From Thermoplasmata archaeon (GTDB taxonomy: Archaea > Thermoplasmatota > Thermoplasmata > Lutacidiplasmatales > UBA184), in NCBI GenBank assembly GCA_030037735.1, contig JASHQC010000056.1, positions 1,707-65,706 of the forward strand: a DNA stretch of 64,000 bases. Reading direction: 5' to 3'. The translations under genes and the position numbers were made by a program. This document shows, one piece after another, positions 38,890-43,972 of the stretch. The notes under the pieces were generated by a model that saw nothing but the letters and a program-made list of their open reading frames with translations, did no database searches and was not told where the DNA came from. Position 1 is the first letter of the stretch. Every line of letters begins with the position of its first letter.

Positions 38890-38993
38890 TAGCGGGGCAT
38901 GGATTTGAACCATGGATCTACGGGTTATGAGCCCGTCGGGATTTCAGGACGGCCGGCGTTCGTCGGCCGTTTTCCTGACTACCCTACCCCGCT
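38890..38993 (-). tRNA. initiator tRNA-Met (anticodon CAT) containing an approximately 28-30-nt intron at a non-canonical position in the D-loop
   Basis: On the minus strand: acceptor AGCGGGG/CCCCGCT 7/7, A1:U72; anticodon stem ACGGG/CCCGT with three G:C pairs; loop CTCATAA; 5-nt variable region; T-arm CATGG-TTCAAAT-CCATG; discriminator A. The D-arm GGGT..TCCC is interrupted by extra sequence containing a 7-bp hairpin (ACGGCCG..CGGCCGT). Confidence 0.75.
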
Positions 38994-39013: not shown

Positions 39014-39028
39014 GACATATTTAGTTCC
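39014..39028 (-). promoter_or_regulatory. TATA box (aactaaatatgt on minus strand) about 25-30 nt upstream of the tRNA-iMet 5' end
   Basis: The only AT-rich patch in the flanking GC-rich DNA, at the canonical archaeal -26/-27 spacing. Confidence 0.5.
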
Positions 39029-39070: not shown

Positions 39071-39808
39071 TCACGATAACGCGTGGAGTCCGGATAGCGC
39101 TTCGTTCGCGGACTCGACCGAACGACGTGAATACTCTTCGAGGGCGGAGCGTTGCGCGCTGTCGAGCTGAAGGGCGGGCCAGTCCCAATGCAGCGCGACC
39201 GTCGTCCCGACGCCGGCCTCGGGGACCACGCGGGAATCGTACGAGACTTCAACCCATTTCGGCGGTCCGGCTAGGAGCTGTCCGTTTCGCACCGCCCAGG
39301 TGGATCGCTCAACGGTCAGTTTCGCTCCGTCACGCGCGCGAACCGTTCCCCACGCCGGGCGACAAGCCTCCATGTTCCGAAGGGTCGTCTCCACGTGACC
39401 CGTGACGTTGCCGACGCCAACGAAGCTCACGTGGAATGCGTGGTGGAAGAGAGGCCGCGCCGGAAGATGCTCCTCGAGCCGTCGGGCAAGGGACCGGGGA
39501 AGCCCGCGCTGTGCCAGGGCTTCCAGCAGGAGGTGGAAATCGGCGGCGTTCATCGAATCCAGTAGAGAATTTCCTATCCAGTAAGCTTCCACGACCTGGC
39601 GGTCAAACGGGTCGAGCCCGTGCTTGCGACCGATTGCCTCAAGGTAGGGCATGAGCGCCTCGAACCGGCTGAGGTGCTGGCGAGCCTCCGCGCGCCCCTC
39701 TCCCGCCGTGATTGCACGATAGAGGGCCGGCTCAGCGTCCGAGGGTCCGCAGAACTGGAGCCGGTTCGTTGCGATGCTGAAGCGGGCGCAAAGCGCGACG
39801 CCGTCCAT
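39071..39808 (-). CDS. hypothetical protein
   Basis: 245-aa ORF with non-repetitive composition and no overlap; function unknown. Confidence 0.4.
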
Positions 39809-40776: not shown

Positions 40777-41061
40777 TCAGGTACCCTCGCCCGCCATCGG
40801 AGAGCCTAACATGGTCGCGGTCCGACGGGCTCCATCGATGGTCGTCTCGCGCGCCAGAGTCAGCGCCTCGAGGGCCTCCGCCTTGTCGACCCGCCGGATG
40901 GCAAATCCGGATTGGACAATCACGTAGTCGTCCACGGCCACTTCGGGCACGTAGAGCAGGCTCACCGTCTTGAGTTGGCCTTCGAAGTCCACCTGGGCGA
41001 TCGGTGCGACCGGATCGCTTGCATCGACCGACACGATGCGGCCGGGAATCGCTAGGCACAT
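40777..41061 (-). CDS. hypC: hydrogenase maturation factor HypC/HupF
   Basis: Begins MCLAIPGRIV.. (the invariant MC(L/I)(A/G)IP). Confidence 0.85.
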   Translation of the reverse strand: MCLAIPGRIVSVDASDPVAPIAQVDFEGQLKTVSLLYVPEVAVDDYVIVQSGFAIRRVDKAEALEALTLARETTIDGARRTATMLGSPMAGEGT

Positions 41062-41091
41062 CGTCGAGCCTCTCCTCGCGGGTCCCCCGCT

Positions 41092-41376
41092 TTAGCGTTC
41101 ATTCGTACTTCCGCTCTCCTCCACGTCGAGGCTCACCAGAACCAGCCCCTGGGCTCGAGGGTCCTCGAAGTCCCGCGATGTGGTCAGGTCGAGGGCGGCG
41201 GATTCGGCGGGCGTGCCGTCCACGATCCGGGGCCACTCCCGACGCAGCTGCTCCTCTGAAACATGGGACAACGCGCCGAGCCAGAGGCGAACACGGACCA
41301 CTCGAGGGGCTGCCTCTCGGGCCGTCACCTCGACGAGCTTGCGCCGGAGGTCCTGCAGCATCGCTTCTTCGTGCAT
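41092..41376 (-). CDS. hypA: HypA-like hydrogenase nickel-insertion protein lacking the C-terminal zinc-finger
   Basis: N-terminal MHEEAMLQDL..VRVRLWLGALSHV resembles the HypA Ni-binding N-domain (MHE..), but there are no cysteines and only 94 aa; hypC starts 30 nt downstream. Confidence 0.45.
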   Translation of the reverse strand: MHEEAMLQDLRRKLVEVTAREAAPRVVRVRLWLGALSHVSEEQLRREWPRIVDGTPAESAALDLTTSRDFEDPRAQGLVLVSLDVEESGSTNER

Positions 41377-41379
41377 CGC

Positions 41380-41895
41380 CTACCGCCGCTCGCGCGAGGT
41401 CGTAGCAGGGGTGGGCCGCCCGAGTTCCTCCGCCAGCGCCTGCGTAACTTCCCGGACGCCTCCGCGTACCTCCGGAGAGAGGTCCGCCCCCGGGTCGAAC
41501 TGGACCGCTTCGATCCCGAACACCACCAGCTGGCCCGGCATTCTTCCGAGGGTTTGACCCAGGGCGACCGCCGAGGCGATCGAGAGCCCATGGGTCGACG
41601 TGCCGGCCAGCGATGACGGAAGAGGTTGGTCGCGCACCAAGACTCGACACCAGGTTCCGGGCGCGCCACCGGATCGTACCGCATCGACGAGGTAGACGCG
41701 GGCCTGTCCTTCCCAGAGATCGAGGAGTTCGGTCGCGCTGCCGGAACAGTCAACGACCCGGGCACGATCGCCGACCAGCGGCCGGAGCTCGCGCGTCACC
41801 TGGAGCCCGGCGGCATCGTCGCCGCGGACCTCGTTCCCGACTCCGATCACCAGGGGGGTGCCGGACCCGCTGCGTTCCGATGGGACCTCGGTCAT
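41380..41895 (-). CDS. hydrogenase maturation endopeptidase (HycI/HoxW/HybD family)
   Basis: [19 protein letters not shown] signature; start ATG at 41893-41895 overlaps the hydA stop (ATGA). Confidence 0.8.
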
Positions 41896-43187
41896 GCGCG
41901 CTCCACCTCCAGCTTCAGGAAATGGGTGGCGCAGGAGATGCACGGGTCATGGTTCCGGATAGCTCGCTCACACAGGGCGGTGAGGTGGGCATCGTCCAGC
42001 GCCAGCGAACGCTCGACGACGTGCCGCACGTCCTCTTCGATGCGCTTCTGGTTCTGCGCCGTCGGCGCGATGATCTCTGCAGCCTCGATCCGGCCGTCGG
42101 AAGCGAGCTGGTACCGGTGGAACAAGAGGCCCCGGGGGGCCTCGGTGGCGGCGGCTCCTACGCCGCCGTGGAACTCGCCGGTCGGTTCGACCCACGCGGT
42201 TTCGGGAGGGCGGTACACGGAGAGGAGGCGCAGCGCCTCTTCGCAGGCGTAGACCATCTCGATGCTCCGCACGAGGATGCTCCGGAACGGGTTCCGGACC
42301 ACCGGTTCCAAGCCCACCTCGCGAGCGATCGACTTCGCCCGGGGAGAGAGCTGCGAGCCATTCAGCGCGTACCGGGCGAGCGCTCCTACGAGGTAGGGAG
42401 TGCCTCCCTTGCGGACCGATTGGAGGGCATGCGTGTAGGCCACCGGCGCCCGCTCAAAGGCCTCGTCGAACCGGCTGGCCGACACCCGAACTCCTCGGCT
42501 CGAGACGATCTCCCCCTCGTTCATCGCATATTCTTCCGGATGCTGAAGCGCGACGAACTCGTAGTCCTCCTCCGCGTCGGGGAAAGGCAGGCCGGCGGCG
42601 AAGTGGACCGTCTCCTCGGCGATTTCGAGCGCGGACTCGAGCGTCGGCCGCAGGCTTTCCAGTTCCTCCCGGCTCGGCACGCGATAGAAACCGCCTACGC
42701 GCACATTGATGGGGTGGATCTCCCGGCCGCCCAGCATCTGCATGACGGCATTGCCGGCTTTCTTGAGGGCAAGGCCTCGTTTCACGGTCTCCGGGTCGTC
42801 CTTGGCCATCCGGACCGCGTCCGGGTATCCCAGGAAATCCGGGGTGTGCAGCAGGTACACGTGCAGCGCATGGCTCTCGATCCACTCGCCACAGTAGAAC
42901 AGCCGACGCAGCTCTCGCAGCGCGCCTCCGACCGAGATGCCGTAGGCCTGCTCCATCGCGTGGACGGCGCTCATCTGGTACGCCACCGGGCAGATGCCGC
43001 AGATCCGTGCCGTAATGTCCGGCGCCTCGGTGTACATCCGACCCCGTAAGAACGCCTCGAAGAACCGGGGCGGCTCGAAGATTCGGAGCTCGACGTGCTC
43101 GACCCGTCCGTCCTCGAGCTTAACGTGGAGCGAGCCCTCGCCTTCTACGCGGGTCAAGTAGTCCACCGCAATCGTGCGCTCGGTCAT
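41892..43187 (-). CDS. hydA: [NiFe]-hydrogenase large subunit, group 3b (sulfhydrogenase alpha)
   Basis: N-terminal [10 protein letters not shown] (RxCGxC) and C-terminal DPCISCATH (DPCxxCxxH) nickel ligands followed by a short cleavable tail. The true start [11 protein letters not shown].. at 43185-43187 overlaps the hydD stop by 4 nt; the listed 669-aa ORF has a spurious extension. Confidence 0.9.
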
Positions 43188-43972
43188 CCGCCGGCTCCCT
43201 CTCCTCCCACCGAATCGCCGGCGGCCCGGAATGCCGGCGCGTCGGCGTTGTAGGTCCGGAACACTCGTCGCACCGCGTCGGGAGCCATGCCAAGGTACCC
43301 CAGGTTCCGGATCAGGGAGGCCGTGTTCGGGGAGTCCATCGGTCCAAAGCAGCCGTAGCATCCGCGGTGGTAGGCCGGGCAAATGGCGCCGCAGCCGGTC
43401 TGGGTTACCGGACCGAGGCAGGGAGTTCCCCGGGCCACCACTACGCAGACGTTCCCGCGGCGCTTGCACTCGACGCAGACGCTCTCCGTGGGCACGTTCG
43501 GTGCCCGACGGGTGAGGAAGGCCGACACGACCTCGAGGAGCTGCGCCTTGTTGATCGGGCAGCCGCGGAGTTCGAAATCGACGGCGACGTGGTCGCGGAT
43601 CGCCGTTGACGCGGCGAGCGTCGCGATGAAGTCCGGCCGCGCGTACACGACGCGCTGGAACTCCTCCACGTTGCCGAAGTTGCGGAGCGCCTGAATCCCC
43701 CCGGCCGTGGCGCAAGCGCCGATCGTGACGAGCGTGCGGGACTGGGCCCGGACCTCCCGGATGCGCGCGGCGTCCTCGGGCGTCGTGATCGAGCCCTCGA
43801 CCAGCGAGAGGTCGTACGGGCCTTCGACGACCGCCGAAGAGGCCTCGCGGAAGTTCGCAATCTCGACCGCGTTGGCGACCGCGAGCAACTCGTCCTCGCA
43901 ATCGAGCATCGTCAGCTGGCAGCCGTCGCAGGAGGCGAACTTCCAGACCGCCAACCGGGGGCGAGGCACCAT
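43184..43972 (-). CDS. hydD: [NiFe]-hydrogenase small subunit (sulfhydrogenase delta)
   Basis: [19 protein letters not shown].. N-terminus plus proximal and distal FeS cysteine clusters ([34 protein letters not shown]). Confidence 0.85.

Follow-up and report, generated by a model that had tools for sequence, protein, structure and literature searches.

The window analysed here, a 64,000-nt stretch of contig JASHQC010000056.1 from a Thermoplasmata archaeon (all positions are in window numbering), carries on its minus strand, from 38993 to 38890, a 104-nt initiator tRNA-Met(CAU) gene whose D-loop is interrupted by a 29-nt insert. As judged from the sequences compared below, this is a real, functional gene and the insert is an intron. 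We consider it very likely that it is the functional initiator tRNA-Met gene of a member of the order Lutacidiplasmatales, probably the sole copy, and that its intron is spliced from a relaxed bulge-helix-bulge (BHB) motif of the HBh' class by the tRNA splicing endonuclease EndA together with a ligase. Transcription, the exact cleavage sites, the acting enzymes and the absence of an intron-less second copy are what we infer in this reading. What is out of the ordinary is that the intron lies in the initiator tRNA, that it is fixed across the order, and that the host enzyme is of a class expected to be poor at D-loop introns; it is not wholly unprecedented, given the counts of euryarchaeal non-canonical introns in PMC8450103.

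Read from 38993 to 38890, the gene is AGCGGGG-UA-GGGU-AGUCAGGAAAACGGCCGACGAACGCCGGCCGUCCUGAAAU-CCC-G-ACGGG-CUCAUAA-CCCGU-AGAUC-CAUGG-UUCAAAU-CCAUG-CCCCGCU-A, and its parts are listed in Table 1. The acceptor stem, AGCGGGG/CCCCGCU, begins with A1 (38993) paired with the T at 38891, that is A1:U72, a pair whose role in archaeal initiator tRNA is described in PMC5393177. The anticodon arm, ACGGG-CUCAUAA-CCCGU, contains three consecutive G:C pairs (29-31:39-41), its loop occupies gene positions 63-69 (C32-U33-CAU-A37-A38), and the T arm CAUGG-UUCAAAU-CCAUG is present. CCA is not encoded. The predicted spliced tRNA combines A1:U72, G29-G31:C39-C41 and the CUCAUAA loop with G11:C24 and a 10-nt D-loop, AGUCAGGAAA; from its initiator identity, it would be expected to be charged with Met and to serve initiation through aIF2.

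A first-pass annotation, made from the letters alone, had proposed an initiator tRNA-Met gene with a D-loop intron of ~29 nt at 38890-38993. The proposal is borne out, in that the spliced 75-mer is recognised as tRNA-Met(cat) and at least 95 assemblies hold genes of the same kind. Its coordinates and length are exact (the strand, which it had left unstated, is minus), and the features it named, A1:U72, the three anticodon-stem G:C pairs, CUCAUAA, the T arm and the 7-bp hairpin ACGGCCG-acgaacgc-CGGCCGU, are all there. It had also described a D-arm GGGT..TCCC split by the extra sequence: the split is correct, but the arm does not have four pairs, as the D stem consists of three G:C pairs and a U13.U22 mismatch, which is found identically in intron-less relatives.

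Table 1. Features of the initiator tRNA-Met(CAU) locus in the window
Feature	Position	Strand	Description or basis
Whole initiator tRNA-Met(CAU) gene, 104 nt	38890..38993	-	A1 = 38993, discriminator A73 = 38890
5' exon, gene positions 1-22	38972..38993	-	in-silico splicing; acceptor 5' strand, U8, A9, D-stem 5' strand GGG(U), D-loop AGUCAGGAA to A20a
Intron, 29 nt, gene positions 23-51	38943..38971	-	A-ACGGCCG-acgaacgc-CGGCCGU-CCUG-AA; placed at tRNA 20a/21 by the 3-4-3 rule
3' exon, gene positions 52-104	38890..38942	-	A21, U22, D-stem 3' strand CCC, G26, anticodon arm, variable loop AGAUC, T arm, acceptor 3' strand, discriminator A
Exon half of central helix H, C17 A17a G18 G19 (CAGG)	38974..38977	-	pairs with intron CCUG 38945-38948
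Intron half of central helix H, CCUG	38945..38948	-	pair probability, alignment, cross-order covariation
5' splice-site bulge AAA, gene positions 21-23	38971..38973	-	3-nt bulge in the minimum free energy (MFE) fold; predicted cut after second A
3' splice-site AAA, gene positions 50-52	38942..38944	-	internal loop opposite U13-U16, not a closed 3-nt bulge; predicted cut after second A
Intron hairpin h', ACGGCCG / CGGCCGU, 7 bp, 8-nt loop	38949..38970	-	covariation in alignment
Anticodon CAU	38927..38929	-	Rfam partial match, in-silico splicing
TATA box TAAATAT, -30 to -24 from the tRNA 5' end	39017..39023	-	spacing fits an archaeal promoter

Splice motif and detection of the gene

The BHB motif is a 4-bp helix between two 3-nt bulges, and for introns in the canonical place this helix takes in the first two bases of the anticodon (PMC4090602); from this definition, the cut follows the second nucleotide of each bulge. 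In the gene described here the central helix H is formed by C17-A17a-G18-G19 and CCUG, with a pair probability of ~1.0 in the thermodynamic model. The 5' bulge, A20-A20a-A, is a 3-nt bulge flanked by H and by the 7-bp hairpin h', and the 3' AAA follows CCUG. Cuts after the second A at both sites remove 29 nt (38971-38943) and leave AA + A, the AAA of intron-less tRNAs, which sets the intron between 20a and 21 of the D-loop and not at the canonical position 37/38. The predicted exon junction is GUCAGGAA|AUCCCGAC, joined on to the UUCAAAU T loop (the junction may also be written GGGUAGUCAGGAA|AUCCCGACGGGCUCAUAACCCGUAGAUCCAUGGUUCAAAUCC). Because G-AAA is present at both ends of the insert, five deletion registers (-3 to +1 nt) give one and the same product.

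In its unspliced form the RNA takes a cloverleaf fold, with its D arm lengthened by a bulged hairpin (-51.3 kcal/mol, z = -5.5; none of 200 shuffles was as stable). The outer helix h is absent: U13-A14-G15-(U16) lie unpaired opposite AAA-U, and the nearest closing helix is the D stem, G10-12:C23-25. With h missing at the 3' site, the motif is a relaxed HBh' and not a strict hBHBh' (classes per PMC5829648 and PMC4090602); H, one proper bulge and h' are present, the other site lies in a loop, and the predicted excision restores a standard tRNA. The first-pass annotation had named as decisive against it the lack of any BHB that would restore a D-loop of 9-11 nt, and what can be drawn is a 3-nt bulge, a 4-bp helix and a 3-nt unpaired triplet, with a D-loop of 10 nt.

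On the pathway that we propose, transcription from the gene's own TATA promoter would yield a 104-nt precursor plus leader and trailer, in which the D-loop bases C17-A17a-G18-G19 would pair with the CCUG at the 3' end of the intron as the 4-bp central helix of a BHB-like motif. This helix would be flanked on the intron side by a true 3-nt AAA bulge and then by the 7-bp GC-rich hairpin, and on the side of the tRNA body by the second AAA, held in an internal loop closed by the D stem. EndA would cut after the second A of each AAA, and an RtcB-type RNA ligase would join the exons between 20a and 21. The joining would free G18 and G19 for contacts between the D-loop and the T-loop, and the outcome would be a canonical 75-nt initiator tRNA, to which CCA would then be added.

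Run over the whole window with default settings, ARAGORN called no tRNA, and Rfam at the gathering score gave no match. In E-value mode, Rfam returned a partial tRNA match of 23.6 bits (threshold 29) over model positions 10-63, with the D region skipped; a weak match to the Chloroflexi-1 family (E = 3) was rejected as merely the GC hairpin of the intron. Deletion of the 29 nt in silico gave a 75-nt sequence that ARAGORN called as tRNA-Met(cat). A self-splicing group I or group II intron was also considered and rejected, given the 29 nt of the insert and the lack of a match in the window at the Rfam gathering score. The core of such ribozymes runs to hundreds of nucleotides.

When its intron option was used, ARAGORN mis-called the initiator gene in the related loci L002-L120 (e.g., L002:3915-4017, L004:3948-4050, L015:2410-2512), giving it a bogus anticodon-loop intron and labels that include tRNA-Arg(cct), tRNA-Phe(gaa), tRNA-Cys(gca) and tRNA-Asp, since it read the lengthened D arm as an anticodon arm. 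Pipelines based on ARAGORN may therefore mis-annotate the initiator gene in this lineage. Since the only recognisable initiator gene of the window and its counterparts in at least 95 assemblies escape ARAGORN in default mode and Rfam, the annotations of an abundant soil lineage, and checks that all 20 tRNAs are present, are at risk.

Conservation of exons, intron and promoter

Species-representative genomes were scanned for initiator genes in which G15 and the anticodon stem are 28-58 nt apart, a scan that covers insert-bearing genes only, and at least 119 genome loci with a D-region insert were found. Among the matches listed, at least 95 assemblies besides the window have its exons, interrupted by an insert at an identical position, the exons varying by A/G at position 9 and A/G at the first anticodon-stem base. 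These assemblies are nearly all soil, peat or acid-soil metagenome-assembled genomes (MAGs) labelled 'Thermoplasmata archaeon', and since they include UBA184 and Candidatus Lutacidiplasma silvani AcS3-62, the group belongs to the order Lutacidiplasmatales (TMEG). The order is described as high-GC, about 69% (Sheridan et al., PMC9287336), with which the GC content of the window (65%) is consistent. The closest relative among the matches listed is JOPF058 (L086), with 80-89% amino-acid identity in the flanking genes. The first-pass annotation had called such an intron unusual for a Thermoplasmata-like euryarchaeon, which is right when set against textbook generalisations (PMC4090602) but does not hold within the lineage, where every gene with these exons among the matches listed carried the intron, as do Methanomassiliicoccales-like genes.

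Window and assemblies together hold 84 distinct inserts of 27-32 nt, and one sequence for each was placed in an alignment (A2), with 500 shuffles and slid registers as controls. In this alignment the exon helices are invariant except for A-U/G-U at the first anticodon-stem pair; A1:U72 is invariant in 84/84 sequences, and so are the three G:C pairs of the anticodon stem. The hairpin h' has changed on both sides at eight of its nine aligned pairs, with 92.6% of cells paired, and helix H (CAGG/CCUG) is paired in 99.1% of cells. Every whole-structure measure of covariation lay above all 500 shuffles and all slid registers, the one exception being the count of double-changed pairs, which was tied by two registers. 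In the 5' AAA, A21 is invariant and A22 and A23 are kept in at least 90% of the sequences; in the 3' AAA, A50 and A52 are invariant and A51 is kept in at least 90%. The TATA box is likewise conserved: in 92 upstream regions that are otherwise GC-rich and divergent, columns -29 to -26 are 100% A/T and column -25 is 90% A/T. Frozen exons, a drifting but structure-constrained insert, a fixed splice geometry and a conserved promoter are, as far as alignments can tell, the pattern of a functional intron-containing tRNA gene. Chance similarity was rejected on this comparative evidence from exons, inserts and covariation.

Some variation among the inserts was seen in L029, L042 and L114 (the Ca. Lutacidiplasma silvani group) and in L025 and L085, which have longer inserts of 32 nt. 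In three of these five a G.A mismatch replaces the fourth pair of H (..GGUACUG), and all five have G and not A at the first anticodon-stem position. At mid-hairpin columns 28/44 of A2, 27 of the 84 sequences show a mismatch (mostly C.A or C.U) between paired neighbours, which could be a tolerated or even preferred helix defect.

The product predicted for the window was compared with natural intron-less genes by a metagenome scan that used the intron-less form of the first 55 nt as query. Forty contigs with an intron-less allele were recovered, 38 of them long enough for the full gene, and in all 38 the only difference from the predicted spliced product, besides position 9, is G for A at T-loop position 57. 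Fifteen of the 38 have A9 as in the window, and are thus identical to the predicted product at 74 of 75 positions; one such allele scored 63.8 bits over the full Rfam tRNA model (positions 1-71), and it has the U13.U22 mismatch too. This comparison identifies the predicted product as a genuine initiator tRNA of Euryarchaeota. The contigs have a GC content of 38-49% and are genomic DNA of other lineages, with cluster names for two contig types of ANME-2/Methanosarcinales or 'Euryarchaeota archaeon'; by GC content and names they are not close relatives and cannot tell intron gain from intron loss.

Two other readings of the gene bear on these data. One is that it is a pseudogene in decay, or a spare copy broken by an insertion, with a working initiator gene elsewhere. 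The silence of the gene finders would agree with this, and a second copy may lie elsewhere in the genome; however, the exons have been kept over 75 nt in 96 sequences of different species (the at least 95 and the window) while the insert and the flanks diverged, the TATA box is conserved, and the gene has been retained though its genomic context has not. Nor did the metagenome scan, which had no positive control for the lineage, find any high-GC intron-less allele with these exons. We give this reading next to no credence.

The other reading is that the insert is retained, so that the mature initiator tRNA would bear a long D-arm hairpin as an expansion segment, much as class II tRNAs bear a long variable arm. 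In its favour, the insert is a stable, structurally conserved hairpin, and the EndA class of the clade is reported to be inefficient on D-loop introns. G18 and G19 must contact the T loop. In the unspliced RNA both are locked in H, at a modelled probability of ~1.0. Furthermore, the parts that are conserved (the helix of 4 bp and both AAA triplets) are those that the splicing endonuclease needs while the sequence of the hairpin drifts freely, other orders repeat this geometry with sequences that differ, and removal of the insert reproduces the initiator tRNA of other Euryarchaeota to 74/75 nt. Retention therefore appears very unlikely to us, and we return to a spliced intron as the preferred reading.

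The neighbourhood of the gene is common to the window and L086 only, among the loci retrieved. A DUF6390 protein gene (39071-39808, minus strand) ends 78 nt upstream of the tRNA gene, a pairing that is retained in L086 only among the loci compared. As the neighbourhood is not conserved and the upstream TATA box is, the gene moves together with its promoter. Within a few kb of the initiator gene, 20 of 95 related loci (e.g., L005:6611-6683, L007:2765-2837) have a tRNA-Thr(GGU) gene that lacks an intron, and the window does not. The tRNA's 3' half had no match in IMG/VR as a viral att site. Further along the window, at 40777-43901 on the minus strand and just past an EamA transporter, are an open reading frame (ORF) resembling the large subunit of [NiFe]-hydrogenase (41892-43901), HypA (41092-41376) and HypC (40777-41061); hydrogenase is mentioned nowhere in the main text of the Lutacidiplasmatales description (PMC9287336).

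The splicing endonuclease of the clade

Non-canonical introns have been linked with endonucleases of the (alpha-beta)2 or epsilon2 type, or with alpha4 enzymes that carry specificity-loop insertions (PMC5829648, PMC6379350), and the EndA of T. acidophilum is listed as alpha'2 with 'narrow' specificity (PMC6379350). According to reviews, the euryarchaeal alpha4 and alpha'2 enzymes handle canonical BHB introns only, and non-canonical introns track insertions of specificity loops.

No EndA was found in the window or in loci L001-L120 by hidden Markov model search of six-frame ORFs, and the best 120 matches to a profile of PDB-derived EndA sequences were only Methanococcales-, Archaeoglobi- and Micrarchaeota-like proteins. 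The enzyme of the clade was found by searching an alpha'2 profile against cluster representatives, taking the GC-rich matches through two homologue searches, and from there reaching the contigs. The family comprises 892 proteins at E <= 1e-30; almost all of the best 120 of these are 353-355 aa long and at least 59% identical to one member, P0355, and those with names are called 'tRNA-intron lyase [Thermoplasmata archaeon]'. In four cases EndA and the initiator gene come from the same assembly: P0355 (EndA on DASYYY010000021.1, tRNA locus L105 on DASYYY010000031.1), P0406 (DAHUYN010000001.1, and L038 on DAHUYN010000010.1), P0427 (JAKIWV010000004.1, and L065 on JAKIWV010000002.1) and P0481 (DATJUJ010000021.1, and L093 on DATJUJ010000008.1).

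All four proteins have the Pfam order PF02778-PF01974-PF02778-PF01974, that is, N-domain and catalytic domain twice, and residues 37-335 of P0355 align to A. fulgidus EndA 29-292. The catalytic Tyr/His/Lys are in the second repeat only (FRAY..H..VRK), and with two tandem repeats this makes the protein an alpha'2-type EndA, predicted to act as a homodimer. At the site of the Crenarchaea-specific loop (CSL), equivalent to A. fulgidus 174-178, there is neither gap nor insertion when the protein is set against the wild-type A. fulgidus enzyme (AFU), and it is 10 residues short of AFU-CSL (3P1Y), the A. fulgidus EndA with a grafted CSL. The sequence there is GS-R.G.R-LELSL, against GS-EKGDL-VTLSL in A. 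fulgidus, with conservation of at least 90% at both arginines. A comparison of length, with the M. jannaschii and A. fulgidus enzymes only, showed no extension of the L2 or L3 kind.

The non-catalytic N-terminal repeat retains a full-length alpha-like loop (FAVLPRGG.LHKTP) that is lost in A. fulgidus EndA. In the EndA loci L161-L170 the gene belongs to a cluster that is conserved (CarS-like CDP-archaeol synthase / phosphoribosyltransferase / EndA), its genes overlapping by 4 nt.

The type of enzyme raises the question of whether the insert might be removed otherwise than by EndA alone acting on a BHB-like motif, for instance by another RNase, with a guide or accessory factor, or through recognition of the mature domain as by the eukaryotic TSEN. 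Such a mode would suit a relaxed motif and an EndA that has no known specificity loop, of a type that is poor on D-loop introns in vitro. Set against this, the conserved 3-4-3 register and the AAA triplets are a recognition signature of EndA itself, and the A. pernix enzyme needs no other factor for a D-loop intron (PMC3241643); as a speculation, the conserved arginines (R.G.R) at the CSL site could stand in for the CSL lysine. We regard removal by such other means as very unlikely, and continue to favour EndA with a ligase.

Several points nevertheless weigh against the favoured reading. A strict hBHBh' cannot be drawn, with the 3' site falling within an internal loop of 3x3 or 4x4; a U16-A50 pair lengthens H to 5 bp in the window (p = 0.99 in the thermodynamic model); and the energy of the strict 3-4-3 conformer exceeds the MFE by 3 kcal/mol. 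The clade EndA is an alpha'2 enzyme without the CSL insertion, and the wild-type alpha'2 EndA of A. fulgidus 'hardly cleaved' a D-loop BHB intron (PMC3241643) and was inefficient on the D-loop HBh' intron of M. kandleri (PMC5829648). The lack of a high-GC intron-less allele in the metagenome scan is to be read with the lack of a positive control for the lineage, and these genomes could hold a second EndA paralogue or a second, intron-less initiator gene elsewhere.

If the favoured reading is correct, Lutacidiplasmatales, and probably Methanomassiliicoccales, would rely for their only initiator tRNA on an alpha'2 enzyme without CSL/L1, and would form an order-wide exception to the co-evolution of EndA architecture and intron type; for this broader claim we see the chances as evenly balanced. 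Such an exception would imply a loop-less, broad-specificity alpha'2 variant (perhaps through the R.G.R loop), mature-domain recognition of the eukaryotic kind, or a helper factor. The conserved relaxed D-loop intron and the alpha'2 EndA without an insertion are a natural substrate/enzyme pair for testing substrate range.

The insertion site in other archaea and comparison with known systems

The same site is used outside the order. In the Methanomassiliicoccales-like loci L013, L078 and L084 the D arm reads GGG-UAGC-[UAGG]-AAA-hairpin-[CCUA]-AAAU-CCC, so that H is exactly 4 bp and has U17-A for C17-G, a cross-order covariation within H (UAGG/CCUA). Inserts at the D-loop site or a few nt from it also occur in another Thermoplasmata MAG and in Micrarchaeota and Asgard genomes. 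The recurrence of one insertion point, with G18/G19 in H, in Thermoplasmata, Micrarchaeota and Asgard initiator tRNAs points either to an intron of long standing or to a site whose structure favours insertion.

Other initiator genes are more heavily interrupted. Six Methanomassiliicoccales-like loci (L013, L040, L053, L104, L078 and L084, with genes of ~153-156 nt) have two introns, one of about 38-40 nt in the D-loop and a second of ~40 nt in the T loop (GGUUCAAA|...|UCCAGG). The Bathyarchaeota-type genes L012, L027, L037, L091 and L097 (144-168 nt) apparently have three inserts, one near 15/16 and one each in the variable region and the T loop. Among Asgard genomes, an insert in the D-arm region is present in L092 (CP104013.1, the cultured Candidatus Lokiarchaeum ossiferum), L050, L077, L099 and L103, with an additional T-loop insert in L099 and L103. 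Archaeal intron-bearing initiator genes were also found on L034 (JASIAO010000353.1, binned as 'Acidobacteriaceae bacterium') and L037 (JAJPJY010000091.1, 'bacterium'). The gene of L034 is identical to that of L106, a Thermoplasmata MAG of the same study, and both contigs are probably mis-binned.

Non-canonical introns of Euryarchaeota have been counted before: tRNAscan-SE 2.0 gave 25, against 520 canonical ones, in 144 euryarchaeal genomes (PMC8450103 Table S7), including 6 in 3 Methanomassiliicoccales, 11 in 35 Methanosarcinales, 4 in 3 Methanocellales and 1 in 5 Thermoplasmatales. Our literature search found no paper that identifies or discusses these introns, and neither EndA nor these tRNAs are treated in the supplements of PMC5829648 and PMC9287336. 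The introns of Methanomassiliicoccales and Thermoplasmatales in Table S7 come from the same class, Thermoplasmata, as the one described here, and the loci labelled Methanomassiliicoccales share its site and geometry. The table gives counts only, without tRNA identity or position, and several of the Methanomassiliicoccales-like genes differ from the window's gene by their second intron in the T loop.

The nearest described case is the pre-tRNA-Glu(UUC) of Methanopyrus kandleri (Kaneta et al. 2018, PMC5829648), which is also euryarchaeal, with its intron at 20b/21 as compared with 20a/21 here. Both have a relaxed HBh' motif, with a proper 5' bulge, a central helix and an intron hairpin but no closed 3' bulge. 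The M. kandleri intron, however, is in an elongator tRNA that has a canonical intron as well, and it occurs in one species, whose EndA is of the (alpha-beta)2 type, whereas here the D-loop intron is the sole one, it is in the initiator tRNA, and it is found in at least 95 species-level assemblies, in four of which an alpha'2 EndA was identified. The pre-tRNA-Thr2(UGU) of Aeropyrum pernix (Hirata et al. 2011, PMC3241643) is another D-loop case, for which EndA alone suffices, though it is slower than on anticodon-loop introns; the motif there is described as a canonical BHB and the enzyme has the Crenarchaea-specific loop, in contrast to the relaxed motif and the absence of a CSL insertion here.

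A further essential initiator gene whose disruption makes it dependent on BHB-type processing is the permuted initiator tRNA-Met of Thermofilum pendens (Chan et al. 2011, cited in PMC4090602). Its host is a crenarchaeon whose EndA has broad specificity, and the gene differs from a simple D-loop intron case in being circularly permuted at its T arm. With the canonical hBHBh' introns at 37/38, finally, the present intron shares the 3-nt/4-bp/3-nt logic, the exon half of the central helix, an intron sequence that is free apart from its structure, and presumably the EndA and ligase pathway; it differs from them in its position in the D-loop and in the missing outer helix h.

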